Below, one piece after another: positions 49,595 to 64,000 of a stretch of DNA of 64,000 bases. The notes below the pieces were generated by a model. The model was not told where the DNA came from. It did not search any database and saw only the letters and a list, made by a program, of their open reading frames with translations. The position numbers were made by a program, and so were the translations under genes. The first letter of the stretch is position 1; the number at the start of each line of letters is the position of its first letter. Origin of the DNA: Candidatus Latescibacterota bacterium (GTDB taxonomy: Bacteria > Latescibacterota > UBA2968); NCBI GenBank assembly GCA_965204745.1, contig OZ242010.1, positions 3,808,001-3,872,000 of the forward strand, given 5' to 3'.

Positions 49595-50545
49595 TTAAGG
49601 CGCGAGGGCCACAGCGCGGACTTCGCCGAACTCGCGGGTGAGTTTCGTCCACGAATCGCCGCTGTCCGTGCTTTTGAAGAGTTGCCCGGCAATGCTGTAA
49701 GCCATCATCCAGTTGGGGATGGCGGGATTGTAGATGACGGCCCAAACCGTGCTGTTGGTGTTGCCGCCCAGGTCCGCACGTTTCCATGAACGCCCCAAGT
49801 CCTCGGTGTAGAACAACCCGCCCTGGTCGCCCGGAGGCCCGTTGCCCGCGCCGACATACACGCGGCCCTTGGATGTGTACAGGACGCCCCGGCAATAGGG
49901 CCACGGAAAATGGTCTTTCACATTCAGGCGCGTCCAGTGGGTCATGTCCGTGCTGAGGCACACGTCGTTGTTGGTGCCGGCCACCAGTGTTTTTGGGGTT
50001 CCGGGCACGACGGCGAGGCCGTGAATGTCGAGGCTCGAGAGGCCCTCGTTGCCCGCTGTCCATGTTTGCCCGCCGTCTGTGCTGCGGCGCATGCCGTCGA
50101 TTTCAATGCCGGCATAGACGGTTTGATCGTCTTGCGGGTCGATGATGATGGTCGTCACGCGCGGGATGATGGGGCCGCAGTCTTCCACGAGTTCCACGCA
50201 AAGTCGTTGCCACGTCTCGCCGCTATCGTCCGACCGAAACAGCGCGGAAGGGCAAGTGCCGGCAAAAATTGTGTCGGGATGGTTGGGGTGAATGGCGAGG
50301 GACCAGATTTGCAGGTCGTTCATCGGCGAATCCAGTTTTGCCCAGTTGTCGCCGCAATTTTGCGACCGGTAAACGCCGGTCTCTGTGCCCGCGAAGAGAA
50401 TGGACGCATCTTCCGGATGCACGGCAATGGCACGAATGTCCGATTCCGAAAACATGCCGTTGCTGGTGCGCCGCCACGAGTCCCCGCCATCTCCGCTTCG
50501 CCAGATGCCTTGCCCGATAGTGCCGACATAAAGCGTTGGTTTCAT
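49595..50545 (-). CDS. BNR/Asp-box beta-propeller protein
   Basis: Repeated RS.DGG.(S/T)W Asp boxes. Confidence 0.85.
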   Translation of the reverse strand: MKPTLYVGTIGQGIWRSGDGGDSWRRTSNGMFSESDIRAIAVHPEDASILFAGTETGVYRSQNCGDNWAKLDSPMNDLQIWSLAIHPNHPDTIFAGTCPSALFRSDDSGETWQRLCVELVEDCGPIIPRVTTIIIDPQDDQTVYAGIEIDGMRRSTDGGQTWTAGNEGLSSLDIHGLAVVPGTPKTLVAGTNNDVCLSTDMTHWTRLNVKDHFPWPYCRGVLYTSKGRVYVGAGNGPPGDQGGLFYTEDLGRSWKRADLGGNTNSTVWAVIYNPAIPNWMMAYSIAGQLFKSTDSGDSWTKLTREFGEVRAVALAP

Positions 50546-50715
50546 CGTTTCCTCCTCGTTAAAAATTTGGGTACTTGGGGATAAGATACGGCTTCAAATC
50601 AAAAACACAAGTGCCTACGCAATGGCGAGGCAAAAGGCAAAAAATGGTTGTGCAAATGCCTGTAACTCATTAGATTCCGCGCTTCAACTCTCAACCCCCG
50701 AAGGAGGTGAATCCC

Positions 50716-50973
50716 TTGCCCAAACTGGCATCGTCAAAAAAACGCCTGCGCCAGGCCCAAAAAGCCAGGCTTCGCAATAAAAGTGCGCGCTCGCTGTTGC
50801 GGTCTTCCCTGAAAAAGATGTTGGCGACAACGAGCAGAGCGGAAGCCGAAGCCCTGATCAACCGCACGCAGTCCATCATCGATAAAACCGCCCAAAAAGG
50901 CGTTATCCACCTCAATGCAGCGGCCCGATACAAAGCGAGAATCATGACGCACGTCGCCGCACTCGAGTCATAG
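50716..50973 (+). CDS. rpsT: 30S ribosomal protein S20
   Basis: SSKKRLRQ..K.RLRN...RS.LR, IDK.A.KGVIH.N.AAR.K; AGGAGG + TTG start. Confidence 0.93.
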   Translation: MPKLASSKKRLRQAQKARLRNKSARSLLRSSLKKMLATTSRAEAEALINRTQSIIDKTAQKGVIHLNAAARYKARIMTHVAALES

Positions 50974-50993
50974 CCACATCACAGCCATAAAAC

Positions 50994-51033
50994 AAAAAGC
51001 CCGGCAATCTCAAAGAGATGCCGGGTTTTTTTT
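50994..51033 (+). terminator. Bidirectional intrinsic terminator after rpsT
   Basis: AAAAAGCCCGGCA-ATCTC-aaa-GAGAT-GCCGGGTTTTTTTT. Confidence 0.85.
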
Positions 51034-51042
51034 GTTACTGGC

Positions 51043-51234
51043 CTACGGGTCTAACTTGGACTTGTCTATACCTTGAGGCGCGTCCTGCTTTGGCGGCTTT
51101 GTGGCCGGCGTCTGGATTCTTAGAGAGGAAGACCAAAACGTTCCGCCGCGGTTGAGTTGCACCACCGGCGTACAACCCACCAAGTCCAGAACCGTATGTC
51201 CAACTTTCGCAGCATGTATAAGGGCGTGGCTCAT
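51043..51234 (-). pseudogene. 5' remnant of a second cysteine-synthase-like gene
   Basis: VLDLVGCTPVVQLNR matches the CysK/CysM N-terminus, then similarity is lost; ATGA-coupled to the Ubl gene. Confidence 0.6.
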
Positions 51235-51506
51235 CCGCCGGCAATGGCGGGAACGATAGTCACTTGGTCGCCATCTTTGACGTCCGTTTCGCTTCCGTCC
51301 AAGAAGCGAATGTCCTCTTCATTGACATACACATTGACGAATCGGCGGATCGCGCCCGATTCATCGACCATGCGTTCTTTGATGCCCGAATGCCGTGCTT
51401 CGAGGTTGTCGATGACTTCCCTGACGGTCGCGCCCCGCACTTCCACGTCGGCCCGATCGCCCGTGAATTTACGCAGGGGCGTTGGAATGCGAACTGTTAC
51501 AGCCAT
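51231..51506 (-). CDS. MoaD/ThiS/CysO ubiquitin-like sulfur carrier
   Basis: V.IPT.LR, RRFVNVYVNEEDIRF, C-terminal PAIAGG. Confidence 0.92.
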   Translation of the reverse strand: MAVTVRIPTPLRKFTGDRADVEVRGATVREVIDNLEARHSGIKERMVDESGAIRRFVNVYVNEEDIRFLDGSETDVKDGDQVTIVPAIAGG

Positions 51507-51626
51507 GGTTATCTCCTTGGTTAAATGCGGTGAGAGGTGAGAAGGAAGAAGTGAGAGGGCCGCCCAGCCCCGCTACACACTGCGCGCATTTGAACGGGCA
51601 GTCGCTCAGTTGTACTCCGCTCGGGG

Positions 51627-52043
51627 CTAGGTTGTGTTGACATTTACGAGCCCTGCAATGACTTGAGCGGTTTATCGAGAAAATCAAGCCCTGACGTTTC
51701 GCAGTTCAAAGAAGGCATCACAATAAGTGCTCTCGCAAAAGACCCTCCGATCAAGCCATCACGCACAGCGCGCAAGGCCGTCTCGCAACCAACATCCCTC
51801 TTGCAACCCACTTTGCAGGCCAACGCATGTCGTGCGATTACAAAAGCGATTTGCGCTGTGCAAGCCCCTCGGCGTTTGAGAGCGGCATTTTTTGCCTACT
51901 TTTTTTTGCTGTTGAAAAAAAGTAGGTCGCCGAAGGCATCGGAGGCAACCAACGAGGCTTTAGGACCAAACGCCTTAAATGAGCAAGCAACACATTTGCT
52001 AATCTGTGCGTAACAGAAAAAAATAAAATGTCAACACGACCTA
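51627..52043. mobile_element. MITE copy 2
   Basis: CTAGGTTGTGTTGACATTT ... AAATGTCAACACGACCTA; internal sequence near-identical to 20170-20685 but ~100 bp shorter. Confidence 0.8.
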
Positions 52044-52059
52044 AACTTCCATCTTACTT

Positions 52060-52539
52060 CTACCCTCTTACTTCCTCGAATTGCGATGATGAATCGCACC
52101 ATTGAAATACTTTTTTGTTGTGTTCATCTACCCGCGCGTGTTGGACCGCGATGACGGGATAGACCACGCCGGGGTAGGTGGGTTCGCCGAAGAAGGTTGC
52201 GGCGTTGTGGTCTTCTTCAGAGAAGTACGCGGGGACGTCGATGTGCGAATGGTAAATCGCGATCATCCGCCCGCCCGCTTTTTCGGCTTCGGATTGAATC
52301 CGCATCACTTGCATGTCGTCCATGCGATAAGCCATCTTTGAGGTGCGCGGATGGGTTTCGGGATCGGCGGCGTGCAATTTGTCTTGGATATTTTCGCAGG
52401 GATGCACCACCTGCACTCCCGAAGCGTCTTCGGTGACGATGCCGCAGCACTCGGCCGGGTACTCGCGTTTTGCGTGGGCAACCATGGCGTCCCAAACGGG
52501 TTTGTCAAACACGATCACCTCGCGGAGTTGAGCCGCCAC
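52060..52539 (-). CDS. JAB/Mov34 (M67, Mec-like) metallopeptidase
   Basis: P.ECCG and YHSH.....FS.ED JAMM motif. Confidence 0.9.
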   Translation of the reverse strand: MAAQLREVIVFDKPVWDAMVAHAKREYPAECCGIVTEDASGVQVVHPCENIQDKLHAADPETHPRTSKMAYRMDDMQVMRIQSEAEKAGGRMIAIYHSHIDVPAYFSEEDHNAATFFGEPTYPGVVYPVIAVQHARVDEHNKKVFQWCDSSSQFEEVRG

Positions 52540-53441
52540 AAGGGCGTGCTCATGTACTTTTCCCCACTGTCGGGAAACAGGGTGACGATGACCCCATGAT
52601 CCAGGGTTTCGGCGACTTTCAGGGCCGCGGCCATCGCAGCACCGCAGGACTGCCCCACGAGCAGGCCCATGTCTCGGGTCAACCAGCGCGCTATGTGATA
52701 GGCGTCTTCGGTTTCGATCCGCATTTTTTTATCCCACACAGCGGGGTCGTAAATGCCGGGCACAATGGACACATCCATGTTTTTGAGGCCCTCGATGCCG
52801 TGAAATTCGGGCGGTTCAACGGCGATGATTTGCACATTGGGATTGCGTTCTTTCAGGCCCTGCGCCGTGCCCATCAACGTGCCACTCGTGCCCAAGGTTG
52901 CCACAAAGTGCGTGATTCTGCCCCGGGTTTGCGCCCAGATTTCTGGGGCCGTGTGCAAGTAGTGCGCTTTGGGATTGGAGGGGTTGTTGTACTGATCGGG
53001 TTTGTAATACCGATCCGGTGCGGCCGCGAGGATGTCTCGGCATTTCAAGATCGCGCCGTCTGACCCCTCGAGCGGGTCGCTCAAGACCAATTCCGAGCCG
53101 TAATGCTGAATGACGTAGCGCCGCTCAATGCTCACGCTTTCGGGCATGACCAGTTCGACCCGGTACCCCTTTGCCGCGCCGATCATGGCATAGGCAATGC
53201 CGGTGTTGCCCGAGGTCGAATCCAAAATCACTTTGTCGGATGTGAGTTCGCCCGCTTGTTCCGCATCCTCGATCATCTGCAACGCAGGGCGATCCTTGAC
53301 CGATCCGCCCGGGTTAAACATTTCGAGCTTGGCCCAGATTTCAACACGCGGATCGATCTTTTTGCCCAACCCGCGAATGTGCAACAACGGCGTTTTGCCG
53401 ATGGCATCGAGAATGGAATGGCGAATGCCCTTGCGCTTCAT
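52515..53441 (-). CDS. cysM: PLP-dependent cysteine synthase (CysM-like)
   Basis: KLEMFNPGGSVKDR, TSGNTG, QYNN, GTSGT, DSGEKY. Confidence 0.85.
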   Translation of the reverse strand: MKRKGIRHSILDAIGKTPLLHIRGLGKKIDPRVEIWAKLEMFNPGGSVKDRPALQMIEDAEQAGELTSDKVILDSTSGNTGIAYAMIGAAKGYRVELVMPESVSIERRYVIQHYGSELVLSDPLEGSDGAILKCRDILAAAPDRYYKPDQYNNPSNPKAHYLHTAPEIWAQTRGRITHFVATLGTSGTLMGTAQGLKERNPNVQIIAVEPPEFHGIEGLKNMDVSIVPGIYDPAVWDKKMRIETEDAYHIARWLTRDMGLLVGQSCGAAMAAALKVAETLDHGVIVTLFPDSGEKYMSTPLWRLNSAR

Positions 53442-53464
53442 AAATGGCCTGCCCGATCTCGAGG

Positions 53465-53851
53465 TTAATACAGCTTTGCCAAAAATTCGGTGAAACTGCC
53501 CGATAGGTCGGATATCTCATCGCTTTCGTGATTCCAAAAAACCACCGAATCAATTCGCCCGTCTGCAATTTTGAAAGCGATGAAATTTCCGAATGGGTCT
53601 GTTGCAATGGGGATTAGGTTATCGGGAGGGATCGCTTGGGCAATGGCGATGGTGTCTTCGAGATCGACCATGTAATCGAGGACGCATTCCCTTTCGCGTT
53701 CCGCGTCAAATCGTTCCAAGGTGGGTTTTCCTCGGTTGCATGTCTCGAGCGATGCCTTGTAGTCATCCGGCAGGCTGAGGTCAAAGTGTGCCTCAATTTT
53801 TGCCACTTGGTCTTTGTCCAATGGCGAGACGTATTTCCATTCTAAGGTCAT
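53465..53851 (-). CDS. SMI1/KNR4 (SUKH) immunity protein
   Basis: IE..F...LP.DYK......N.G, IPIA.DPFGN, VVFWNHE, SFTEFL..L. Confidence 0.9.
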   Translation of the reverse strand: MTLEWKYVSPLDKDQVAKIEAHFDLSLPDDYKASLETCNRGKPTLERFDAERERECVLDYMVDLEDTIAIAQAIPPDNLIPIATDPFGNFIAFKIADGRIDSVVFWNHESDEISDLSGSFTEFLAKLY

Positions 53852-53867
53852 CACATGCTCTCCTGTT

Positions 53868-54353
53868 TTATCGTGCTTCGCTTCCACCGCCCCATAAGCT
53901 CCAGCCGCCTACATGCGGAGTTCTGCGGTGGACTTCAGAATCTACCAACTGCATGCGCCCCGGTTCTTCGTGGTGATGCCAAGTATATCCTTCGGGCTTA
54001 TCGCCATTGCGGATTTGTTCTAGTTGCCTGTCGGTGAATTGCTCGGTGTCGAGCGTGCCGTTCTCGTAAGCCTGATGCAACTGCTCGTTGCAATACTTGT
54101 CATGCAGATAACGAGAATCCTCGAGTTGATCCTCGGGGAGTTGGGTTTCATAGCGGCAATGTTCAGAGAAATCGTGTATCAACCCCTGTTCTTTCAAATC
54201 CGCGAGGCGAATCTCATACAAAATTTCAGCGCGGAAAGACTCATCTTGGAGCATCACATCAACTCGCTCACCGATGACTTCTTGCGGAATCTCTTTCTCG
54301 ATTGCCGAAGGGGTTTCGCTCAACTCGGTTGCCGTAGTCTCAATAACCATCAC
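53868..54353 (-). CDS. WHH/HNH (colicin-DNase-like) nuclease toxin
   Basis: P.GYTWHH....G.MQLV...VH....H.GG...WGG. Confidence 0.9.
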   Translation of the reverse strand: MMVIETTATELSETPSAIEKEIPQEVIGERVDVMLQDESFRAEILYEIRLADLKEQGLIHDFSEHCRYETQLPEDQLEDSRYLHDKYCNEQLHQAYENGTLDTEQFTDRQLEQIRNGDKPEGYTWHHHEEPGRMQLVDSEVHRRTPHVGGWSLWGGGSEAR

Positions 54354-57300
54354 ATCACTCGCTTTCTAATGGCGTTGCGTATCTCTTGCACGATTCGCTT
54401 TCTAATGGCGTTGCGTATCTCTTGCACGATCTCGCGGTCGTCAACGAGTAGCTTTTTGTCAACGATTTTATCAAGTGCTTCGGGTAGTTTAATGTCTGTT
54501 TTCTTTGATTTCTTCGTTCCACGTTCATAAATAGCCAGATTTGCTACGCTCTCCATGATTCTATCCCGACTGCTCTCACCCAGCCATTTGTCAAAGGCCG
54601 CCATGAACCGCACGCGATTAAAACGCAGGCGATCATCCCAAAGGCGATTAACAGCCTCTAAAACATCACCATCAATGACTCTTTCCTTCGCAAGCCCCAA
54701 AGTCAAAAAAAATAACACGCGGCAAAACCATTCGCGCAAGGCACGTTCTATGGTTTCATCAGTGACGTACATCAGTTGCTCTGCTTTTCTGGCCGTTTTT
54801 ATGGCTTCGGGCAAGAGATCGTCGAGTTCAGAATTTGAGAGAAATAACGAACGAAGCAATTTTATGGCTTCGGGCAAGAGATCGTCGAGTTCAGCGTTTG
54901 AAAGAAAAAGCGAATGGAGCAATCGCAGTGCGATGGCACGCAGGTCTCGGCTGTCCAGCAAGCCGCTCTCGTGTAATGCGAGTTCCGGCTCCTGGCCCTC
55001 GACTTTGATCCTTATATCTCCAATCGCCTCATTCGGCAGTTCATTAAAAACGGAAATTTCAACCGGCTTTGACATTCCCTCTTTGTGCGCGAGTGCCGTG
55101 CCCGCAGAAAGTTGGTTGAGGTACCGGCATTCCTGTTCCTCCAATCCCAAGCCCGTGCCGACGGCGATTTGGTCATCGATTGAAACGAGCCTGTGGATGA
55201 TCTTGGTGTTGGTGTTCTTGATGACATCCGGGGCGATTTTGGTCGGGATTTGCTCGGCGACAATCACGCCTTGGCCGTAGGAGCGCATCTCGGCAATGAG
55301 GTTGCAAAAAGACTCGACGGCTTTGCCTTTGGGATTGCCGATCATTTCACTGGTGCGCTCGGTTTGCACGTTTTTGAGCAACCTGTGCGCTTCTTCAATA
55401 ACCAAGACGTGGTGGAGATCATCCGTGTGTGTCAGAGTGCTTTCGCGGGCCGAACATTGCCGGTATTCGCTTACCAACGCGAGCATCAAACCGACGAAGA
55501 AGGCTTTGTCGTCGTCATCGGAAAGGGATTCGAGTTCAAACACAACGCGACCTTTTAGCAAATCCTCTATGTTTCTAAAATCGTGCGTGTTAAAGAGAAA
55601 GCCCTTCGCGCCAACGGCTAAGGATTCGAGACGGGCGACAATCGCGCTGCGGATATTGTCCTGCAATTCGCCTTTGTATTCCAATTCCTCTTTTACATAC
55701 CGGTTCACATCGTCGATCAAGTCTCTGATCGTGGGATAGATAAAGCGGTGAGTTTGGCAATCCGCGAACGTTTTTATTTTCACCCGCTGATGGTTGCCCG
55801 TGGTCAAGTTCCATCCGCGATCCTTGTAGATGTTGTAAATACATTTTTCGAGGATGTAGGGCATCGGCCCGTAGAGGGAGAAACTCGCGTAAAAGATGGA
55901 TTTGAGGTTGTCGATATGGGTGATGAGCGACACCCCGGGAAGCACCATAAACGGGTTGTGGCGTATTGGCGAAACACCCGAATCGCCAACCGTATAGACG
56001 CGCAAGTTGCCGTCGTATTTCGCATCGGTCAATAATCTGCGGTATTCCCTCTTGGCGGATTCGATGACGAGGAAGGGCGTGTCAATGCTGTGCAAGATGT
56101 GCTTGACTGTGGTCGTCTTGCCCGATCCGGTGAGGCCAGAGACAAAGATGTGTTTGCGGATGTCGTCTTTTGAGATGGTAAAGTCAGAGCCTTTTACAAC
56201 TCGTCCGTGTTCGGAAATGCGACCGATTGAATAACCTGCGCGGTCTCGGGTATCCGTCAGGCTCAAGGCGGGTTTGACGCGAATATCATAGCCGGGAACA
56301 GAAGAAAGCGGCGGGGCCATGAGCAAGGCGGCTTCGTCGCTCGACAAGAACGACAGCAATTTGTTGCCCGTGATGAGGGATCCCCCATCTCGCTCTTTGG
56401 GAACGAAGATCGGTATGTCGGCGGATAACGCACCGCTGACGTTTCGGATCGGCAGGGCGTCGGGATCGGCCTTGATGAGTTCGCCTGCCAAGGTGCCGGA
56501 TAAAATTTGCGAGGCCGTACGCGATCCTGTCGCGTATGTGATAAAACTTTCCCAAAGCCCGGTGTTCAAGCCATTACGCAATCGGGTGATCAGCTTATCG
56601 GCGATACTTTCCAACTCCCTCGCAAGCGTGTTCTGCTGTTCGTAGGAAAGACTGCGCCCGACGTTTTCCGACCAGCCTACGGAATCGGTTTCCGAACGGC
56701 TTGAGAATTTTGTTTTATTGTAAGAGTACCCCACAGAAGGCAGAAGCATCAGCCCCATCAGCCCCATCAGCCCCGTCATACCCACATTGAATCCATGAGA
56801 ACGCGATTCCCCTTCTGTCTCTTGAACCGCATGGCTTTGGTTTATGCCTGCACTCTCTTCCAGCCCGATTTGCCGATTTGCCAGCGCGTGGCACTGATCT
56901 TTTCGGTTCATCAGTTCGTGAAGTTGCTGTGCCGTCTCGTATTTCGCAACAGGACGTGAGACTATCGCCAAGAGAAATTCCTGCCCATTCATGCTTCTTA
57001 TGACCGAAGACAGATCGAAGGTCTGTTTTTTCTTATCTATTTTCTGTGTCGGAATACCTGTGAGGACGCCGCCATGCTTTTGTTCCTTTAGCCTGTTGAC
57101 GATTCTTTCTCTATCGGATTCGATGCCTTTCCCGGGATAAACCCCCTGCAATTGTTCCCTGAACACATCCTTCACATCTTCCTCACCTCTGACTCCAAGA
57201 AAAATGTCAACCGTGCCGCCGCCATCTCCTGAAATGATCGTCGTAAGCGTATAGCCTGCTTGGGCGGCGGCGACAATCGCGGCTTGCTGTCTTTTGTAGA

Positions 57301-57553
57301 TCAGATCAGCCACATCTTGAGCATCGGCGGACACAGAAATCTCCCCAACTCGAAACAAATAGAGCGAATCGAGAAATCGCTCAATGTCGCCGCGACCTCG
57401 CATGACGTTTTCGCGCAGGGTATCGGTGTCCGTTGACGCAATGGTCCAAGGGAGAAGGTCCGAGAAAATTGCGTTGAGTTCCCGCGCCCCATCTTCCTGA
57501 TCAGGCACTTTCTGTTTTTCAAGAGCCTTTGTCATAAATGCCTCTCTTGTCAT
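54350..57553 (-). CDS. HerA/FtsK/VirB4-like (DUF87) ATPase with large N-terminal domain
   Basis: HIFVSGLTGSGKT Walker A, VLVIEEAH Walker B, EMRSYG arginine finger, AEQIP sensor. Confidence 0.9.
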   Translation of the reverse strand: MTREAFMTKALEKQKVPDQEDGARELNAIFSDLLPWTIASTDTDTLRENVMRGRGDIERFLDSLYLFRVGEISVSADAQDVADLIYKRQQAAIVAAAQAGYTLTTIISGDGGGTVDIFLGVRGEEDVKDVFREQLQGVYPGKGIESDRERIVNRLKEQKHGGVLTGIPTQKIDKKKQTFDLSSVIRSMNGQEFLLAIVSRPVAKYETAQQLHELMNRKDQCHALANRQIGLEESAGINQSHAVQETEGESRSHGFNVGMTGLMGLMGLMLLPSVGYSYNKTKFSSRSETDSVGWSENVGRSLSYEQQNTLARELESIADKLITRLRNGLNTGLWESFITYATGSRTASQILSGTLAGELIKADPDALPIRNVSGALSADIPIFVPKERDGGSLITGNKLLSFLSSDEAALLMAPPLSSVPGYDIRVKPALSLTDTRDRAGYSIGRISEHGRVVKGSDFTISKDDIRKHIFVSGLTGSGKTTTVKHILHSIDTPFLVIESAKREYRRLLTDAKYDGNLRVYTVGDSGVSPIRHNPFMVLPGVSLITHIDNLKSIFYASFSLYGPMPYILEKCIYNIYKDRGWNLTTGNHQRVKIKTFADCQTHRFIYPTIRDLIDDVNRYVKEELEYKGELQDNIRSAIVARLESLAVGAKGFLFNTHDFRNIEDLLKGRVVFELESLSDDDDKAFFVGLMLALVSEYRQCSARESTLTHTDDLHHVLVIEEAHRLLKNVQTERTSEMIGNPKGKAVESFCNLIAEMRSYGQGVIVAEQIPTKIAPDVIKNTNTKIIHRLVSIDDQIAVGTGLGLEEQECRYLNQLSAGTALAHKEGMSKPVEISVFNELPNEAIGDIRIKVEGQEPELALHESGLLDSRDLRAIALRLLHSLFLSNAELDDLLPEAIKLLRSLFLSNSELDDLLPEAIKTARKAEQLMYVTDETIERALREWFCRVLFFLTLGLAKERVIDGDVLEAVNRLWDDRLRFNRVRFMAAFDKWLGESSRDRIMESVANLAIYERGTKKSKKTDIKLPEALDKIVDKKLLVDDREIVQEIRNAIRKRIVQEIRNAIRKRVM

Positions 57554-57573
57554 TCATCGAGAAACCGCCATCA

Positions 57574-57813
57574 CTACTCGGCATCCAACACGCGCTGAAA
57601 TGCCGCCAGATCGGTCACTTGCGCCGCCGAGCGAAGCAACTGCTTGAGGCGTTGCAAATCGTCAATGGCCCTGATACCGGCGGCGAATTGGTTAGCCGCG
57701 TTAGGGTCAAAGCGAACCTCCAACACGTCGAGGATATATTCAACTGCACGCTCTCTACCCGCTCTTTGCATGAGATATTGTGCAAACGATGATTCACGCA
57801 TAATCGCGTCCAT
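57574..57813 (-). CDS. Stand-alone copy of the Rpn C-terminal domain (RpnS-like)
   Basis: AGGAGG RBS + MDAIMRESSFAQY...FQRVLDAE, paralogous to the last 75 aa of the upstream gene. Confidence 0.75.
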   Translation of the reverse strand: MDAIMRESSFAQYLMQRAGRERAVEYILDVLEVRFDPNAANQFAAGIRAIDDLQRLKQLLRSAAQVTDLAAFQRVLDAE

Positions 57814-57827
57814 AAGACCCTCCTGCA

Positions 57828-58694
57828 CTACTCGGCATCCAACACGCGCTGAAATTCATCTAGACCATCAACTTGCACTGCCGCATGAAGCAACTGCTTA
57901 AGCCGTTGTGTATCGTTGATGGTCGCAATGCGACCTGTGAACTGGCCGGCCGCGGCCGGACCAAAGCGAATCTCCAACACTTCTTGGATGCTCTCTTGCA
58001 TGCCCACTTGTTTAATGTATTGTGCAAACGACGATTCGCGCATAATCGCGTCCATAAGACCCTCCTGAGAAATGATGCTCGTAATAGTGCTTGGCTCGTA
58101 CACCAACCCACTCAATACCGCCAACCCACCCAAAAAATTAGCCTTGGTTGAATGATCCAACGACACCTCATCGGTTTTGAGGATACACTGACGCAACCAT
58201 TCCTGTGAAGCCATCCCCACAGGCGGTTTCATCAATGGCGCGAACGGTAGCAAACCTCGATGACCGCCCTCGATAATGCTTTGCCCGTCTATCTCGCTCA
58301 GCCGAATCACCTTGTAGCGCACCACCACTTGGAAGTCGGGATGCTCTTGGATGTAAAGCCCTGGATCGTGCCGCCCTGCATCGGGCCGCAAGTAGATTAC
58401 GCTGGAATAGACAGGTAGGCCATACTTCTCAATAGCGCGGCCGACATAGCTGGGTATGCGGTGCTGCATCGGGATGCCCGTGCTGTCCGTGGTTTGAAAT
58501 TCCGTGTGAACCACGACATCTTTGCCATCGATCCGCACGAGAATCAGGCTATCGGTTTGGCGCGTTTCAACCGTGGGTTGTTCCGTGTCGAGGATTGCTC
58601 GGAACTCAACGTCGGTTCGTTCAAGTGCGAATTGGACGAAGTCGTCGGGGTAAGTTTGAATCAGTCGTTTGGAAATCGTATCGTATTCGGCCAT
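57828..58694 (-). CDS. Rpn/YhgA-like PD-(D/E)XK nuclease
   Basis: YD..SK.L, R.TDSL......VHTEFQT, M..R...Y, V.S.VIYL, Y.VIRL, LLPFAPL. Confidence 0.85.
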   Translation of the reverse strand: MAEYDTISKRLIQTYPDDFVQFALERTDVEFRAILDTEQPTVETRQTDSLILVRIDGKDVVVHTEFQTTDSTGIPMQHRIPSYVGRAIEKYGLPVYSSVIYLRPDAGRHDPGLYIQEHPDFQVVVRYKVIRLSEIDGQSIIEGGHRGLLPFAPLMKPPVGMASQEWLRQCILKTDEVSLDHSTKANFLGGLAVLSGLVYEPSTITSIISQEGLMDAIMRESSFAQYIKQVGMQESIQEVLEIRFGPAAAGQFTGRIATINDTQRLKQLLHAAVQVDGLDEFQRVLDAE

Positions 58695-58758
58695 GTGGAT
58701 ACCTTCGGCTCAAAAAATAAAATCATCCCTGCTTACATCCGCAGGGCCATTGTATTCC

Positions 58759-58950
58759 CTATTCACTAAAAAGGTGCAGGCGCGCTCCACCGAGCGGTGG
58801 GGTGATATTGTATTTGGGTTTCGTATCGACCCCCAAGCGGTGCAATTCCAACTCCAACTTCTCGTGCCGCGCCACCAAATCTGGATCAACCATCGGGTTG
58901 CGCCTAAGAATTTCAGCCTTTTCCATCGGCTTGGGCATTTGATTGGTCAT
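58759..58950 (-). CDS. 63-aa hypothetical protein
   Basis: GAGGA RBS, 8 nt after the preceding stop. Confidence 0.65.
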   Translation of the reverse strand: MTNQMPKPMEKAEILRRNPMVDPDLVARHEKLELELHRLGVDTKPKYNITPPLGGARLHLFSE

Positions 58951-58958
58951 GGTATTCC

Positions 58959-59609
58959 TCAGCGTCTGAGGCGGATTCTCTCGCGGATTCTCTCGAGTTT
59001 TTCCTCTATGCGTTCCTGCAAGTATGCCTCTTGTACTAGTTCACCGTCCCATATATCGAAATCAGCAATACCTGATGCAACACGTATTGCTTCAACCAAA
59101 AGGTCAATGTCGTCAACGCCGCGGTGGAGTCCGCGGTAAAGGATGGCGTATGCCAATGTAGCATCGCGGAGATCAATATCACTGAATGAGCCAGCGATCC
59201 ATTGATAAGGAATATTTATTTTTTGAATTTCCTCTGCCATTTGTGTGCCATGTGCGCCGCCGCAACATGACATACACACACCAAGGCCACCGATATACTC
59301 ATGAATGTCAAGAAGGTAGTCAGCGAGTTCAGGCCACGGGATTCTGCTCTGATCGGTAAGTTGAATGCCTTGTTCGCTCCCGTGTGTACTGAGATGCAAA
59401 ATTGGAACTTTGCGGAACTTATCTATGGCTTCTTCAACCCTATTAGTCATTGCGATGTCGAATTGATCCAAGTCAATCGCAAGATTATATGAGTATTGAA
59501 TCCCAGCGATGTCGAGAAGCCCGTATAGAGCTCCGCCCTCGGTAATACCATCAAGCAGTTCGTCAGGCGATGGTGATTCGACTATATGGACATAGAAATT
59601 GTTAGCCAT
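58959..59609 (-). CDS. Caspase/CHAT-like (clan CD) protease candidate
   Basis: PILHLSTHG and GVCMSCCGG in His-Cys dyad order and spacing; GGAGG RBS, start at MANNF. Confidence 0.6.
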   Translation of the reverse strand: MANNFYVHIVESPSPDELLDGITEGGALYGLLDIAGIQYSYNLAIDLDQFDIAMTNRVEEAIDKFRKVPILHLSTHGSEQGIQLTDQSRIPWPELADYLLDIHEYIGGLGVCMSCCGGAHGTQMAEEIQKINIPYQWIAGSFSDIDLRDATLAYAILYRGLHRGVDDIDLLVEAIRVASGIADFDIWDGELVQEAYLQERIEEKLERIRERIRLRR

Positions 59610-59610
59610 T

Positions 59611-60216
59611 TCAATTTTCCTCCGCAGGTGTGATTTCCTCAAACAGCGCGACGTATTCATCAATGATTTTTCGCGCTTGTTCTTGGTAGCGCGTCTCAAC
59701 CGCATCGAGATGGGCATGCAACTGCTCTAAGGTCTTTGTCTTATTGCGCTTATCCACGACGCGGGGAATGAGAAAGAACATGCCCGCTGCCACAACGACG
59801 ATAAACGCGCCAGAGGGAAAAGCGGTAGCGACAACAGCGCGATAGATGCCGCCAGCAGCGACAACACCAGAGGCGATCTGGATGTATTTTTTGGGCAAAA
59901 TTTTAGGCGAAAAGGACGCGGTCTCGTCAATGCGGGATGAGACCTGATCGCGGATTTTACTGTCGTAATACCGATTTTGATCCACGGGTGCCCAGTTGGA
60001 GATCGCTTGGCGGGCGTCTTTGTCCAGATAGGTCAGCAAGGTCGTCTGGATGACGCCATTGATATTTTCGATGCGCGCCCTCAACTCTTGGGCGATTCGC
60101 TCCGCGTACATTTCGCTTCCGCTGTTCTCTGAGTCCAGATCATTGAAATACGCTTTGATCTCTTGCACCATAGACCCAATATCAGAGAAGATGAGTTCAG
60201 CGTGGGTGAGTTTCAT
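59611..60216 (-). CDS. Helical protein with hydrophobic hairpin (dynamin partner)
   Basis: IASGVVAAGGIY...AFIVVVAAGMFFLIP flanked by coiled helices; TGATG overlap with the dynamin stop. Confidence 0.7.
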   Translation of the reverse strand: MKLTHAELIFSDIGSMVQEIKAYFNDLDSENSGSEMYAERIAQELRARIENINGVIQTTLLTYLDKDARQAISNWAPVDQNRYYDSKIRDQVSSRIDETASFSPKILPKKYIQIASGVVAAGGIYRAVVATAFPSGAFIVVVAAGMFFLIPRVVDKRNKTKTLEQLHAHLDAVETRYQEQARKIIDEYVALFEEITPAEEN

Positions 60217-62255
60217 CACAATTCTCCTGCGATTTGCGTACACTTTTTGATGTTGTCCTCGAAAGTTTTTTTTTGTTTTTTCAGATCGGAAATCTCATCT
60301 CCCAATTCTTCATTTGTTCTTTTGTCTCCCTCAAGATTTTCCATAAACTCCTGTCGCTTCTGAAGTTCCCCATTGAATTGACGCTCATATCTGTCGCAGA
60401 AATTATTTATTAGCCGATCAATTTGTTGCTGAACTTCCGTCTCAATTTCTTGAGATAAGGTTACAAACGGCCCTCTAATCATCTCCCAAAACACATATGC
60501 ACGTTTTTCTTCAATTTCATTTATTTGTGTATTCCTAGAGTCGCAACAACTTCCCTTTGCGCTTTCTTTGGCTACCAAGTCCTTGATTTTTTTTTCGGTA
60601 GCCTTTATCCCTCTCGTCCAAAAATTTCTATCCAATGGGACTTTGGGCACAGTTATTGAGTAATCACTCTGCACACCAATAGCTCTTTCCTCTATTCTTT
60701 TCTTAAAATCTGACTCCAGTGAATTAACGAATTGGGTCATTTCATCATAGTAATCTTCTCGCAATTTTTCTCCATAAGATTCGACATTTTTGGGTTCCTC
60801 TCCGGGTCTAAAACTTTTTTGGTTGATCTCGTTGCGGAAGCTATTCACTATTTGATGTATTTCTCGATAATATCTGCTGTTTCTATTTTTTGGAGAGAAA
60901 TCATCTCTCAATTCGGCGGTAAATTCATTGTAATCCCTTCTCATTCTCTCCGTTTCATCTTTATGCTTCTGTATTTCCGATGCAAAAGACTGAGGGTTCT
61001 GATACTTCTTTCGCAGGGGTTCTATGCGTGCGCTAATGTTGTTGTCAAGGACTTCATACCCCTCTTTTAAGTCAGTAGCAAATTTCTTCATTTGAATAGA
61101 TGCTGACTTTTGTGCATCGCGTTCAATTCTTTTGCGAATCTCGTCGAAATTCGCCTGCGCTTCTAATAGGTCGAGAAACTCATTTATATCGTCATTGGCC
61201 TTAAAAAAGCACGGCGCAGTCAGCCCCATTATTTTCGAGTCCGCAGAAAGAATGGCCTGGACTTCATCCATTGTTTTTGCTTTGTAAAAGGATTTTTTCA
61301 GATAGAGTTCAGTTAGACTATCGACAAGGAAGATATTATCCGCGCCAATTCCGGGATAATAGCTCTTGGTCGCATCCAATATTCTCTCGCGTTCATCTTC
61401 ATCGATCTGGCTCCTATGCGTCAGGACGAGTATCAAACGCCCTTTGACCCGTTCGGGAATCACATTCTCCAAGGCATTGCGGAGTGCGATACTTTCCTGC
61501 TGTCCCACTTTGTGTAAATAGATAACCGCATCCGCTTGGTTGATGAAATTCTTCGTCTGATCTTCTATGCCGCCAATCGCGTTGATTCCCGGCGTATCGA
61601 CAATTTTGAAATGCTTGGACTGCAAAAACTCAATCGGATAACCGAGTGCGACCGTTTTGGGAATCTCAGCACAAGAGATGTTGTGCTGGACATATTCGCG
61701 GATTTTTCGGGCAAATGCCTCTTTCTCCAAGTTGTGTACATTTTCGAGTTCGGGATCATCAATGAAGTCTCTCAATTCTTTCTCGCTGAATACCGCCTTC
61801 TTGCTTCTGTCGCTGTAACGATCCATCAAGAATTTGTTGACTTGGACGACGGGGATGTCGCGGTATTCATCTTTGACAGCAGCGATTTTCTTCAAAAACG
61901 GCACGGTCTCGTTTTCAGGCGTTCGCAGGTCGTCCTCAACGACTTGCTCTGTGCCATTGGCAAAGGAGACGCGCACTTCCTTTTTGTCGGACTTGTCGAT
62001 CTCAATGATTTCAGAGGTCGCTTGCAGGGCTTCATAAGGCAAGATCGCCTCGCCGAGAAGCGCGTTGATAAAGGTCGATTTCCCGGCTTTCACTTCCCCG
62101 ACAATGGCGAGCAAAAACTTTTCCGCTTCGATATTTTTTTGCGCCGCCCTCAAGCCCGCGTCAATGTGCTTGCCCTCTTTGCCAAGGTCCGCGTGCAGGG
62201 ATGTATAGAGATCTAGCAAAACCGTTCGGTGTCCTGCGAGTTGTTCGTAATTCAT
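60216..62255 (-). CDS. Dynamin-like GTPase (679 aa), AT-rich
   Basis: GEVKAGKST, QATS, DTPG; atypical G4 LTHRS; coiled-coil C-terminus. Confidence 0.88.
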   Translation of the reverse strand: MNYEQLAGHRTVLLDLYTSLHADLGKEGKHIDAGLRAAQKNIEAEKFLLAIVGEVKAGKSTFINALLGEAILPYEALQATSEIIEIDKSDKKEVRVSFANGTEQVVEDDLRTPENETVPFLKKIAAVKDEYRDIPVVQVNKFLMDRYSDRSKKAVFSEKELRDFIDDPELENVHNLEKEAFARKIREYVQHNISCAEIPKTVALGYPIEFLQSKHFKIVDTPGINAIGGIEDQTKNFINQADAVIYLHKVGQQESIALRNALENVIPERVKGRLILVLTHRSQIDEDERERILDATKSYYPGIGADNIFLVDSLTELYLKKSFYKAKTMDEVQAILSADSKIMGLTAPCFFKANDDINEFLDLLEAQANFDEIRKRIERDAQKSASIQMKKFATDLKEGYEVLDNNISARIEPLRKKYQNPQSFASEIQKHKDETERMRRDYNEFTAELRDDFSPKNRNSRYYREIHQIVNSFRNEINQKSFRPGEEPKNVESYGEKLREDYYDEMTQFVNSLESDFKKRIEERAIGVQSDYSITVPKVPLDRNFWTRGIKATEKKIKDLVAKESAKGSCCDSRNTQINEIEEKRAYVFWEMIRGPFVTLSQEIETEVQQQIDRLINNFCDRYERQFNGELQKRQEFMENLEGDKRTNEELGDEISDLKKQKKTFEDNIKKCTQIAGEL

Positions 62256-62400
62256 GGTGTGACCTCGTGTTTTGAAGTGTCAAGACAAAACCGCTCCTGA
62301 GTTGGGGTTGCGTCAAAGTAGCAGGCGATTTTTGAAGTGTCAAGACGAAACCGCTCCGGAGTTGGGGTTGCGTCGAAGTAGCAGGCGACTGCTTCTTTAA
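62252..62400 (-). pseudogene. 3' remnant of a gene truncated by the IS, with a 60-bp tandem duplication
   Basis: ACYFDATPTxERFxLDTSK twice, TGA overlapping the dynamin ATG. Confidence 0.5.
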
Positions 62401-63480
62401 TAGGACTTACGCCAGGGTCATTGGTATCGCCGGTGTTTTGAGTTGTTGTCTCAAATAGTCCTCCCATAAGCCATGTTTGACTTGATAGATGGTTTGTCCG
62501 GTCTGATGGGCGACTTGGGTCAGTCGTCCCCAAACGAGGAAGGCACACGCGATATGGTTTCGCACAATGCGTGCCAATCGGCATTGACACTTTTCAAGTC
62601 CCGTCACCTGTTTTGCTTCCCGGTGAACTTGCTCAATCTTCCAACGCAAGTGACACACCGCTTGTGCCACTGACGGGTCGGTTTGAGTCAAGTCGTTGGT
62701 TACGATATACGCCGTGCGTCTCGTAGCAGACGCGACCCGGAATACGTTCACCTTGTGGTTTTTAGGGAACCCTCTGAGTTTAATGCGTTTCCCTGTGTCC
62801 TGTTCGCGTTTTGTCCAAGTTAAGGCATCGACCCGTTGATAGGGGTTTTCACCTGACGAATCGTCCACGAGGCGATTCTTTTTGATAGGACAGGAATAGA
62901 TCTTTTGTAAGTGCTCAATGTGAAGCATGACCGCTTTGGTGGCATACCAAGTATCCATCACCACTCGCTCAAAAGGCAGTTTTTTGTGATAGACCAAGAG
63001 CGACAACATCTCTTTGACGTGATCTAACTTGGTTTTCCCATCCCCTTGCGGATCGTAAATGCGATAGTCAATCAGCCAAAACCGATCTTCAACCGGATTG
63101 ACATACACACACGTCACCACACCGATCCCCGAGATGACCCCCTTCGCATTGCCACTGTATTGCCGACGCACGAGGGCCATCTTTTTGGCATAGCGCTTGT
63201 CTAAGACCGTGTCATCAAAGAGAATCACGCCCTTTGCGGTTGACGTGAGGTGGGGTTTGACGTTTTTCCAGATCTCACGCGGCGAGACGCGATCCCCACC
63301 CAGATAGCGGTTGAGCATATCATGCGTGAACCGGTCGCTGTGATCTGCGAAATGAGTCAGGGTATAGTTGAGCGGACTGCTAAGCAGATACTGGCAGTAA
63401 TCCAGGCGTGTTGGTTTCGCCATACAGACCTCCAAAGTGAGGATGGGGGTTCGATCCCGTTCTTTTTTGCGTAAGTCCTA
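62401..63480 (-). mobile_element. IS701-like insertion sequence, copy 2
   Basis: TAGGACTTACGC inverted ends; same 1080-bp length as copy 1; no target duplication. Confidence 0.9.
62407..63435 (-). CDS. IS701-family transposase
   Basis: Differs from the 38117-39145 protein at about 8 of 342 residues (counted by eye). Confidence 0.88.
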   Translation of the reverse strand: MEVCMAKPTRLDYCQYLLSSPLNYTLTHFADHSDRFTHDMLNRYLGGDRVSPREIWKNVKPHLTSTAKGVILFDDTVLDKRYAKKMALVRRQYSGNAKGVISGIGVVTCVYVNPVEDRFWLIDYRIYDPQGDGKTKLDHVKEMLSLLVYHKKLPFERVVMDTWYATKAVMLHIEHLQKIYSCPIKKNRLVDDSSGENPYQRVDALTWTKREQDTGKRIKLRGFPKNHKVNVFRVASATRRTAYIVTNDLTQTDPSVAQAVCHLRWKIEQVHREAKQVTGLEKCQCRLARIVRNHIACAFLVWGRLTQVAHQTGQTIYQVKHGLWEDYLRQQLKTPAIPMTLA

Positions 63481-63486
63481 TTTGGG

Positions 63487-63589
63487 ATGAATAATGGTCA
63501 ATCTTTTTGTTGACGTAAATAAAGATAGAATACCTATCACCATTTGTCAACCTTTTTTGGCATGAATAATAGTCAATCTTTTTGTTGAC
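63487..63589. repeat. Two 28-bp direct repeats with internal GTCAA-N8-TTGAC palindrome, 47 bp apart
   Basis: ATGAATAATRGTCAATCTTTTTGTTGAC at 63487-63514 and 63562-63589. Confidence 0.8.
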
Positions 63590-63597
63590 AATGCGAA

Positions 63598-64000
63598 TCA
63601 AGAGTAGAAAGCGAGTAAGAAGCAAGCCGCGGTCAATCGCCCAAAGACATGAACGAGTAAGCCCTCATAGGATCGTACCCGAGACGCCATCGAGATGTTC
63701 GTCTTTCGTTCAATCCAACTGAACAAGGCCTCTATAGGCTGTCGCATGCTCGAAACCGCCCGAGAAAAGTCTTTTTCGGCCTCGGTCAGGCTTTCTTGCC
63801 CCTTCTTTCGCTTCACCGGCGTCTTGAAGATCAGGTTCTGCTGTTTGCTAAGCGTGTCTTTTAAGGGCTGATCGGCGTAGATTTTATCGCCGTAGAGGTG
63901 TCCATCCCGCAAAACGGGTAAGCCTTGTCGCAAAGCGGTCAGGTCATGCTCTGCTGCGCCTGTCAAGCCGAAGTACTCTGCTTTGGGCAGGCCATTCGCT
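63598..64000 (-). mobile_element. 3' part of an IS982-family transposase (runs off the window)
   Basis: HD, GDKIY, TPVK, RQPIE.LF.W...KT.I..AS.VRS..GL. Confidence 0.8.

Follow-up and report, generated by a model that had tools for sequence, protein, structure and literature searches.

Background

A long gene for a HerA/FtsK-like ATPase that runs directly into the genes of a small WHH nuclease and an SMI1/KNR4 (SUKH) immunity protein raises the question of whether these genes work as one unit and, if so, whether the ATPase carries the nuclease out of the cell or acts with it inside. We address this question for a stretch of 64,000 nucleotides (nt) from Candidatus Latescibacterota bacterium (assembly GCA_965204745.1, contig OZ242010.1, positions 3,808,001 to 3,872,000), hereafter the window, whose own numbering is used for its features. 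A first-pass annotation of this DNA had proposed a toxin-delivery machine in which the ATPase forms its own beta-barrel channel, or else a HerA-nuclease defence complex. We find that the three open reading frames (ORFs) form the 3′ half of a five-gene conflict cassette that is conserved and horizontally mobile.

Gene order across 80 loci

A search with the N-terminal 460 residues of the ATPase returned a start set of 85 proteins, mostly of 1000–1130 aa and 38–100% identical. Scanning one genome per species gave 96 loci encoding a relative of the ATPase, and 80 of these were kept, each with up to 8 kb of flanking DNA per side; by their record titles, they represent at least 16 phyla plus two archaeal bins. 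Gene order was compared by mechanical ORF calling and all-against-all BLAST, with upstream genes counted in the 66 loci that have at least 3 kb of upstream DNA and downstream genes in the 71 that have at least 1.3 kb downstream. Eight immunity genes overlooked by greedy ORF picking were recovered by tblastn.

Five genes recur on the same strand and in the same order, namely a dynamin-like GTPase (~680 aa), a protein of ~214 aa here called p214, the ATPase, a nuclease of 161–356 aa, and an immunity protein of ~105–150 aa. In the window they are laid out as follows.

60216 to 62255, minus strand: dynamin-like GTPase, first gene of the cassette, 679 aa (Pfam Dynamin_N, E 2.8e-17; PADLOC LeoBC, E 7.4e-14, partial)
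59611 to 60243, minus strand: p214, ~210 aa, probable transmembrane (TM) hairpin between helical ends (hydropathy, BLAST cluster)
54350 to 57553, minus strand: ATPase, 1067 aa with ATG start as called
53868 to 54353, minus strand: WHH nuclease, 161 aa, GTG start
53465 to 53851, minus strand: SUKH (SMI1/KNR4) immunity gene, 128 aa with its ATG start at 53851 (Pfam SMI1_KNR4, 3.7e-20; SUKH_6, 8.9e-19)

The GTPase gene lies upstream of the ATPase gene in 64 of 66 loci (63 by BLAST cluster and L002 by tblastn; exceptions L001 and L039), and p214, which forms one BLAST cluster of 59 members, was found in 51 of the same 66. Downstream, a leader-bearing toxin followed by a small ORF is present in 69 of 71 loci (66 by BLAST cluster; L023, L051, and L053 by eye), the exceptions being L026, where the toxin is lost and the immunity gene kept, and L039. 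Stop and start codons of the ATPase and toxin genes overlap in 56 of 74 loci, with a median spacing of −4 nt. The recurrence of an ATPase, a leader-bearing nuclease, and a small immunity gene is far beyond chance. That the toxin-immunity pair is a chance neighbour of an unrelated ATPase was considered and rejected on the conserved order and the start/stop overlaps.

ORF calls and Pfam bear out the three minus-strand ORFs of the first-pass annotation, with their WHH nuclease and SMI1/KNR4 gene, and the conserved order in 69 of 71 loci upholds its view of ATPase, nuclease, and immunity genes as a functional unit; it had overlooked that the upstream dynamin-like GTPase and TM-hairpin protein belong to the same cassette. 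Its proposal that homolog neighbourhoods be surveyed for a conserved ATPase with variable toxin/immunity pairs was borne out in these loci. Some of its details change. The overlap given as ATGA is in fact a junction reading ...GTG ATG TGA TGG..., in which the genes share GTGA with a GTG start (4 nt) or TGATG with an ATG start (1 nt). The ATPase start is probably the ATG at 57535, because the ATPase of the source record itself has 1061 aa (P0004). The longest SUKH ORF (53465 to 53887, minus strand) has a GTG start and 140 aa. A more likely start of the gene is the ATG at 53851, which has AGGAGA 8–9 nt upstream and gives 128 aa as in relatives; with this start, the 16-nt gap after the toxin stop stands as first described. 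The start of p214 is uncertain, and an internal ATG 27 nt downstream agrees with relatives.

Several loci are incomplete. L001, whose ATPase is the closest to that of the window (88% identity), has toxin and immunity genes and no GTPase or p214 within 8 kb upstream. Two loci are decayed, L026 (11093–12128) keeping a SUKH_5 immunity gene with no toxin ORF and L040 (11120–11761) a truncated REase-like toxin with no immunity gene. L039 (5101–18444) encodes a divergent ATPase homolog without GTPase, toxin, or immunity gene, in an island that holds type I restriction-modification (R-M) M and S subunits, a pAgo (PADLOC E 3.9e-242), and Druantia DruF/DruE-like genes.

Exchange of nuclease and immunity modules

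The window nuclease is divided into two parts.

54192 to 54353, minus strand: toxin leader, residues 1–54 (alignment of 75 toxin N-termini)
53868 to 54191, minus strand: WHH / colicin-DNase nuclease domain, with W125, H126, H127, H142, and H147 intact

Pfam places residues 55–149 in Colicin-DNase (PF12639; E 7.6e-26, 91.2 bits against a cut-off of 25) and residues 117–156 in WHH (PF14414; E 1.3e-16, 60.5 bits against 25.1), and the five residues listed are invariant columns in 28 WHH-type toxins. The protein encoded directly downstream belongs to the SUKH superfamily (SMI1_KNR4, 73.2 bits against 25.4). As the first-pass annotation had it, the nuclease carries neither a signal peptide, its N-terminus being polar rather than hydrophobic, nor an RHS, LXG, PAAR, or CDI family by Pfam; more broadly, no trafficking-module family (PAAR/VgrG, WXG/LXG, TPS, PVC, TcdB/TcaC, etc.) was found by Pfam in the window toxin or in 77 homolog toxins.

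What the proteins encoded next after the ATPase (+1 proteins) have in common is the leader alone, behind which lie unrelated domains. It joins 74 of the 80 +1 proteins in one BLAST cluster and consists of an M-[ILV]-E start, a spacer rich in Ala and Glu that varies in length and is shortened in the window, and a short conserved helix motif; this low-complexity leader spans 50–150 aa ahead of the folded domain. The toxin type could be read in 77 of the 80 loci, the other three being L026, L039, and L070 (contig end).

WHH / Colicin-DNase: 30 loci (Pfam)
LHH: 33 loci (Pfam)
Restriction-endonuclease-like (REase-like), no Pfam match: 9 loci (PD-(D/E)xK-like motifs by eye; one copy truncated)
Toxin partnered with PoNi immunity: 2 loci, L059 and L066 (Pfam on the immunity gene)
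Endonuclea_NS_2: 1 locus (Pfam)
HNH: 1 locus (Pfam, E 4e-4)
Further PD-(D/E)xK-like type: 1 locus (by eye only)

An Atlas search of the REase-like toxin gave Tox-REase families at 0.84–0.87, a lead that agrees with the D...E-x-[KT]-like motifs seen by eye. No non-nuclease toxin, periplasm- or wall-acting ones included, was found among the 77.

Immunity genes follow the toxin type. A SUKH-1/6 type (imB) stands after WHH toxins in 24 of 24 loci, a SUKH_5 type (imA) after LHH toxins in 28 of 28, as well as in the toxin-less L026, and a ~105-aa DUF7832-like protein (imC) after REase-like toxins in 8 of 8 loci; a DUF1232 protein lies downstream of the NS_2 toxin. On an ATPase tree of 73 rows (IQ-TREE quick, LG+G4), the toxin label changes 19 times where 6 changes would suffice, or 22 times where 7 would suffice if the 3 unlabelled rows are treated as an eighth group, while shuffled labels change 35.2 times on average and none of 200 shuffles was as low as observed. 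Toxins differ between sister pairs such as L045/L046 (99*), L066/L080 (100*), and L015/L038 (starred), and between Tenacibaculum WHH and LHH loci (100*). The nuclease domain and immunity gene are exchanged as a pair on a constant ATPase backbone.

This is the organisation of polymorphic toxins in the sense of Zhang et al. 2012, with a conserved N-terminal region, at least seven exchanged toxin types, and a cognate immunity gene downstream; a trafficking module of the polymorphic-toxin kind was not found. It brings up the export side of our question, that the cassette is a delivery route for polymorphic nuclease toxins against neighbour cells, a strong rival reading although we consider it somewhat unlikely. 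The shared leader, the seven or more swapped toxin domains each with its own immunity type, and the excess of swaps on the tree speak for such a route, as does the leader itself, which is of a length and composition that would be easily threaded. However, toxins of 161–356 aa leave no room for receptor-binding or translocation domains, and none of the 77 would act in the periplasm or on the wall. Orphan toxin/immunity arrays, which are frequent in polymorphic toxin systems although not required, are also missing, there being no repeated toxin or immunity ORFs at positions +3/+4 across loci, with cysM following in the window. Within a toxin type, toxin and immunity proteins are about as conserved as the ATPase, and the GTPase is the least conserved (22 pairs); the hyper-divergence of toxin and immunity that would mark a specificity race between strains was not seen in these 22 pairs, which counts against export, although it does not settle the function.

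A predicted VirB4-type ATPase

The ATPase can be divided into the following parts.

56219 to 57553, minus strand: N-terminal domain (residues 1–445), predicted VirB4/TrwK N-domain fold (AlphaFold2, VIA-align, Foldseek)
56645 to 56878, minus strand: variable Ser/Thr/Gly-rich insert (residues 226–303) with hydrophobic tip VGMTGLMGLMGLMLLPSVGYSY, at the end of the helical hairpin H204–225 / H304–331
55004 to 56218, minus strand: FtsK/HerA/VirB4-type P-loop ATPase domain (residues ~446–850; Walker A G473–T480, invariant K479)
54350 to 55003, minus strand: all-helical C-terminal tail (residues ~851–1067; DSSP of the full-length model)

By sequence, the protein is recognisable through its P-loop half. 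Pfam gives sub-threshold P-loop matches only (AAA_22, 1.4e-4; DUF87, 1.2e-3), PADLOC matches mad8 (9.3e-18) and HerA (1.7e-15), a PDB sequence search returns HerA-type chains only, plus chance rows with E of at least 0.1, and K479 of Walker A is invariant in 74 sequences. The AlphaFold2 model of residues 1–445, built on the 74-sequence alignment (pLDDT 79.1, pTM 0.75), has 7o42_A as its best VIA-align match (Z 15.1, rmsd 3.6 Å, 251 residues, model 53–437 on chain 16–437), the next rows reaching Z 8.3 or less and covering the helical hairpin only, and TrwK/VirB4 structures take all ten top places in Foldseek. The full-length model (pLDDT 83.9, pTM 0.78) aligns with TrwK/VirB4 over ~950 columns (E 2.5e-13) and with HerA 4d2i at E 6e-13, and its P-loop half has further matches in HerA, SIR2-HerA, DUF4297-HerA, the VirB4 C-domain, and DndH-C. 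On these models, the ATPase is predicted to be a VirB4 build, with a VirB4-type N-domain and an FtsK/HerA P-loop domain, plus a helical tail of ~220 aa. The earlier HerA/FtsK assignment is thus supported by PADLOC and PDB matches for the P-loop half and does not extend to the N-domain, which is of VirB4/TrwK type and neither a HAS barrel nor a pore-former. A predicted complex of the toxin with the ATPase N-domain and C-tail scored 0.11 (mark 0.32), a value that speaks neither for nor against contact between them.

The N-domain is a conserved feature of the family, given homologs at 38–100% identity across phyla. Its profile, searched against 1.84 billion representatives, retrieves 1273 clusters (50% identity) at E ≤1e-3, 766 at ≤1e-10, and 87 at ≤1e-30, and most full-length proteins among the 150 best-scoring ones listed have ~1000–1200 aa. 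The NCBIfam model NF033849 ('serine-rich protein') scores the window ATPase at 100.6 bits against a cut-off of 650, with five homologs at 98.7–126.2 bits; the alignment covers the ATPase half only in the window and four of the five homologs, the match of L054 extending into the N-terminal half. No cassette protein exceeds an NCBIfam cut-off, and only the flanking cysM and IS701 transposase genes of the window do so.

The C-terminal tail is the least conserved part of the ATPase. In the window, it bears two in-frame tandem duplications, 36 nt twice at 54359–54430 (100% identical) and 63 nt twice at 54797–54922 (89%), both absent from 24 aligned homologs; the tail tolerates changes in length.

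A probable loop in place of the proposed pore

The beta-barrel proposal rested on a 60-aa Ser/Thr/Gly-rich segment with a hydrophobic tip (ATPase residues 244–303, nt 56645–56824, within the ~56630–56870 first given), which does prove to be a family-wide feature in 74 homologs. Under this model, the segments of six ATPase subunits would together form a channel like that of aerolysin or anthrax PA through which the nuclease leaves, and we regard it as highly improbable. AlphaFold2 does draw the segment, in both models, as a long two-stranded beta-hairpin (E244–253 / E278–287), and some relatives, e.g., P0074 and P0077, have alternating small/hydrophobic patterns over 37–50 aa. However, the segment has a pLDDT of 28–39 (below 50 for residues 230–300), the insert varies from 48 to 139 aa in the 74 homologs (median 82; median Ser+Thr+Gly fraction 0.455) without sequence conservation, and some relatives have nearly lost it. 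Uncharged runs reach 15 aa or more in 48 of the 74 homologs, 20 aa or more in 42, and 30 aa or more in 26; the remaining 26 of 74 homologs have a hydrophobic run shorter than 15 aa. The tip has a Gly-zipper character around a central Pro-Gly in Bacillota and Pseudomonadota, which is rather the pattern of a helical or re-entrant hairpin, and the tip in the window is partly a repeat expansion, its GLMGLMGLM being encoded by a 9-nt tandem repeat of 3.6 copies at 56747–56778 that looks slippage-prone. A stem of the aerolysin or anthrax PA type would be expected as a conserved amphipathic beta-hairpin of fixed length that folds with confidence; the hairpin drawn here is of low confidence, of changing length, and often Gly-zipper-like in composition, and in most phyla the segment resembles a hydrophobic hairpin of Gly-zipper type. 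We read the loop as a flexible tether with a probably membrane-seeking hairpin.

The GTPase and p214

The window GTPase matches LeoBC in part only, residues 18–254 aligning with profile positions 50–165 of 601, and has no LeoA match. Its neighbour p214 has a central hydrophobic stretch of ~35–50 aa (Kyte-Doolittle score of 2.24 for window 133–165) that is present in every listed homolog longer than 180 aa. No Pfam, NCBIfam, or PADLOC family was found for p214; one homolog has a weak TrbL/VirB6 match (E 6e-4, below the cut-off), and an Atlas search returned 'hypothetical' clusters only, together with mitofusin/LeoA-helical rows at 0.80–0.81 that are leads only. The protein may be the membrane part of the dynamin, split off from it.

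Twelve loci (L003, L005, L007, L008, L046, L060, and others) have the GTPase and no called p214 ORF. Because several of them have no room between the GTPase and ATPase genes, p214 does not seem to be obligatory in cis.

Genomic context and mobility

Regulators of the HTH-WYL(-WCX) type adjoin the cassette in 24 of the 80 loci, 16 by direct Pfam or PADLOC matches (L011, L022, L023, L024, L032, L043, L046, L047, L049, L055, L058, L059, L065, L067, L076, and L078) and 8 by BLAST cluster. WYL-type regulators go with defence islands. The nearest flanking ORFs were scanned by Pfam (139 of 150, the 11 longest left out) and by PADLOC (83 ORFs from 48 loci, a biased sample, since plainly housekeeping ORFs had been left out first). 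Defence genes are among them in 13 of 80 loci, of which 11 come from the 48 PADLOC loci (E ≤1e-10, non-WYL) and two, L018 and L034, from Pfam. The eleven are listed below.

L003: AbiEi/Eii
L012: NERD helicase
L016: type III R-M and HKD-Snf2
L020: PDC-S18, two copies
L026: IetA
L029: PD-DExK
L039: type I R-M, pAgo, DruE/F
L046: RdrB
L060: PDC-S02
L062: PbeA
L069: NERD helicase and IetA

In all three Tenacibaculum loci, the cassette is enclosed by type III R-M genes. In L016 (728–15905), a type III methylase (E 5e-227) adjoins it on one side and the matching restriction subunit (E 7e-292) on the other, across gaps of 76 and 105 nt, and an HKD-Snf2 protein follows the restriction subunit. Gene order and sizes agree in L018 and L034, where the methylases were identified by Pfam and the downstream subunits by order and size only, and the toxin type varies by species (WHH or LHH).

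Host envelope types mix within well-supported ATPase clades, e.g., Halomonas, Succinatimonas, and Fusobacterium inside a Bacillota clade. The cassette is horizontally mobile, and the ATPase tree shows strong horizontal transfer. Integrases, a serine recombinase, IS66, a relaxase, or TnsA flank other loci, and distant versions with two dynamins and different small membrane proteins lie on conjugative plasmids, namely E. coli IncI pTW10590_133 (L081, 1731–10130) and Lactococcus cremoris pB26B (L082, 257–9040), with four further similar Lactococcus plasmids listed. The toxin of pTW10590_133 has the MIE start and an LHH domain at its end, and this plasmid encodes an extra protein with a C-terminal TM segment; still more distant plasmid relatives of the ATPase stand beside WYL or DUF2357 genes. 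Phage records gave two weak partial matches only, with no sign of a phage-borne cassette.

Such carriers could suggest that the cassette serves addiction or competition between mobile elements, the nuclease and immunity protein stabilising the carrier island or plasmid or excluding rivals, with the ATPase and GTPase as modulators. Variants on conjugative plasmids (pTW10590_133; pB26B and the four similar ones), the integrases, recombinases, insertion sequence (IS) elements, or relaxase at several loci, with IS701 beside the window cassette, and the strong horizontal transfer all fit this view. It nevertheless appears improbable, as a two-gene pair would suffice for addiction, which leaves three large conserved NTPase/membrane genes, the leader, and the translational coupling over; moreover, most loci are chromosomal and the cassette is rare, the plasmid version occurring in 1 of 5426 complete E. 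coli genomes.

Where the cassette would act

Between an export machine and a HerA-nuclease defence complex, the context leans to the latter. We tentatively favour, with confidence a little short of even, that the cassette works within the cell that makes it, at the cytoplasmic membrane, and serves as an anti-phage or anti-plasmid defence of the abortive-infection type. In such a system, the GTPase and TM protein would position the machine at the membrane or sense a disturbance there, the hexameric ATPase would be held by its loop, and the immunity protein would keep a non-specific nuclease harmless. On a trigger, the ATPase might engage the nuclease leader and release the nuclease from its immunity protein and/or feed DNA to it, and the released nuclease would then cut the invading DNA, or all DNA.

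Intracellular defence is favoured because every recognisable effector is a nuclease, because the solved HerA-nuclease complexes (SIR2-HerA, DUF4297-HerA, and HerA-NurA) match the ATPase model, because of the WYL regulators, the R-M, Abi, and pAgo neighbours, and the nesting inside a type III R-M operon, and because the GTPase is nearest to LeoBC of the Eleos anti-phage system. In addition, monoderms, diderms, and archaea carry the same five genes without any added envelope component, an architecture that is hard to square with trans-envelope secretion.

Several points weigh against this reading. Characterised defence systems usually restrain their effectors without the help of a separate inhibitor, while here an immunity gene accompanies the toxin. 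The VirB4 fold together with membrane-associated parts is what an export machine would have. Defence neighbours were seen in 13 of 80 loci only, and because the flanking ORFs given to PADLOC were pre-selected, these counts represent no unbiased enrichment; housekeeping genes surround the cassette in the window and in all 10 Latescibacterota loci, L003 alone having an AbiE pair beside it. No PADLOC model matches the toxin, the immunity protein, or p214. Many of the 80 loci come from metagenome-assembled genomes, in which single host assignments may be binning errors. Finally, a leader, a swapped C-terminal toxin, and an immunity gene make up the layout of polymorphic toxins used between cells (Zhang 2011; Zhang 2012).

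The export route introduced above would, in its fuller form, have a VirB4-type hexamer docked on the membrane through its loop and the TM-hairpin protein. The hexamer would thread the toxin by its leader, remove the immunity protein much as type VII secretion handles EsaD, and move the toxin out, and membrane fission or fusion, in the form of vesicles or cell-cell bridges, would come from the dynamin-like GTPase. The VirB4 fold, the hydrophobic hairpin of the ATPase (48 of 74 homologs), and the TM hairpin of p214 would suit it, as would two parallels in the literature, in which FtsK/HerA-family pumps move nuclease toxins out in type VII secretion (Zhang 2011; EsaD) and LeoA is tied to vesicle-associated toxin release (PMC4159319). 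Against it stand the want of any outer-membrane or cell-wall component in a cassette that nonetheless occurs in diderms, monoderms, and archaea, and the WYL regulators and R-M nesting, which point to defence. A related scheme, which we hold to be unlikely, avoids the envelope problem: the ATPase would strip and load nucleases, and a mitofusin-like pair of dynamin and TM-hairpin protein would bud vesicles or fuse membranes so as to hand the nuclease over into the cytoplasm of a neighbour. Such a handover machine would carry only cytoplasm-acting nucleases, and the same five genes would work in monoderms, diderms, and archaea.

Should the tentatively favoured defence role be correct, the cassette would represent a new architecture in which a VirB4-type motor, a dynamin, and a TM protein control exchangeable nucleases that need dedicated inhibitors, linking polymorphic-toxin modules to immunity. 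Should export be correct, polymorphic toxins would have a new means of secretion or delivery, independent of envelope type. Either way, several hundred clusters of ~1000-aa 'ATP-binding proteins' (766 at 50% identity, E ≤1e-10) and the unannotated TM-protein family of p214 gain a context linked to function, and tractable versions are available on Lactococcus and E. coli plasmids.

Relation to known systems

The closest structural likeness is to VirB4/TrwK (R388; PDB 7o42, 8rtd), which is likewise two-domain with an FtsK/HerA-type P-loop domain and acts at the membrane. Sequence identity is ~10–12%, and the cassette ATPase adds the ~220-aa helical tail and the Ser/Thr/Gly-rich insert. It resembles the VirB4-type ATPase of type IV secretion systems (T4SS) at the level of fold only, with 35.4 bits for NCBIfam VirB4_plasma against a cut-off of 590, and Pfam and NCBIfam find no VirB3/6/8/9/10, VirD4, or pilin among the cassette genes. 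Classical polymorphic toxins do not use T4SS, according to Zhang 2012. HerA-nuclease machines (SIR2-HerA/Nezha, DUF4297-HerA, HerA-NurA) likewise couple a HerA-type ATPase to an effector that destroys DNA or NAD. Compared with SIR2-HerA and DUF4297-HerA, however, the cassette has a VirB4-like N-domain rather than a HAS barrel and a nuclease as partner (NF042943, 33.8 bits against a cut-off of 800), and compared with HerA-nuclease machines in general, its effector is small and leader-tagged, has a separate immunity protein, and is joined by a GTPase and a TM protein.

Eleos / 'Dynamins' and LeoABC of enterotoxigenic E. coli (ETEC) share a LeoBC-like dynamin GTPase in a mobile island, and the plasmid cassettes have two dynamins as well. 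Eleos (LeoA + LeoBC) consists of two dynamin genes only, whereas here mostly one GTPase is joined to the ATPase, toxin, and immunity genes. Eleos defence requires its GTPase motifs, according to the Millman 2022 preprint, and the part of PMC4159319 available to us reports no ATPase or nuclease next to leoABC.

Type VIIb EsaD/LXG toxins, which go with FtsK-like EssC/YueA, also have a swapped C-terminus of WHH, LHH, REase, or PoNe type and SUKH or PoNi immunity, and an FtsK/HerA-superfamily ATPase occurs in the same operon as type VIIb polymorphic toxins (Zhang 2011). The cassette differs from these in having no WXG, LXG, PAAR, RHS, or signal peptide, in carrying nucleases only, in the lack of orphan cassettes, and in its presence, unchanged, also in diderms and archaea. 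Colicin E-type and pyocin S-type bacteriocins share the Pfam nuclease family (Colicin-DNase) and a tightly linked immunity gene; the cassette has no receptor-binding or translocation domains and no lysis gene, and its immunity is SUKH-type, not Im-type. Two further likenesses are functional analogies only, without sequence relation. The type I R-M locus EcoprrI encloses the gene of a latent anticodon nuclease, PrrC, an arrangement that the nesting in Tenacibaculum L016, L018, and L034 may parallel, and Zorya is a membrane complex that brings nucleases to incoming DNA, as a membrane-bound cassette complex might.

The cassette is not a member of the type IV secretion, type VII secretion, Eleos, HerA-SIR2, HerA-DUF4297, or NF033849 family. 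Full-text searches, whose scope was literature other than subscription journals and supplements, returned no description of this gene combination, and the available portions of Zhang 2011, Zhang 2012, Michie 2014, the Millman 2022 preprint, and a lactococcal plasmidome paper do not mention the gene set. We rate the machinery as undescribed and the cassette as akin to NTPase-nuclease conflict systems and polymorphic toxin systems.

Flanks of the cassette in the window

The ATPase is present in a single copy in this genome, and GC content falls from ~0.60 to 0.40–0.53 across 50500–64000. Three further features accompany the five genes.

58959 to 59717, minus strand: extra ORF x252 between p214 and the ATPase (weak iREC match, E 0.0074, only)
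57828 to 58694, minus strand: extra ORF x288, inserted, with its 3′ end partly duplicated at 57565–57735 (direct repeats D1, D4)
62407 to 63435, minus strand: IS701-family transposase, at the island border (NCBIfam NF049921, E 3.5e-116)

The duplication of the x288 3′ end comprises 171 nt at 73% identity and 50 nt at 96%. Homologs of x252 and x288 were found in L002 only (1 of 80 loci); a PDB sequence search gave no match for either, and x288 also has no Pfam or NCBIfam family. Because they are shared only with the close relative L002, the two ORFs are an insertion and not cassette genes elsewhere. Between the start of the GTPase gene and the IS701 transposase gene, a 60-nt direct repeat occurs twice at 62270–62388 (94–95% identical) and could be a regulatory site or an IS end. 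On the other side, directly downstream of the immunity gene, the window has cysM (cysteine synthase B; TIGR01138, E 2.5e-107) and a Prok-JAB gene at 52060–53441. A JAB gene is also found in L007 only, and cysM (PALP) is likewise downstream of the cassette in L002, L007, and L009, a recurrence that indicates a shared insertion site in Latescibacterota.

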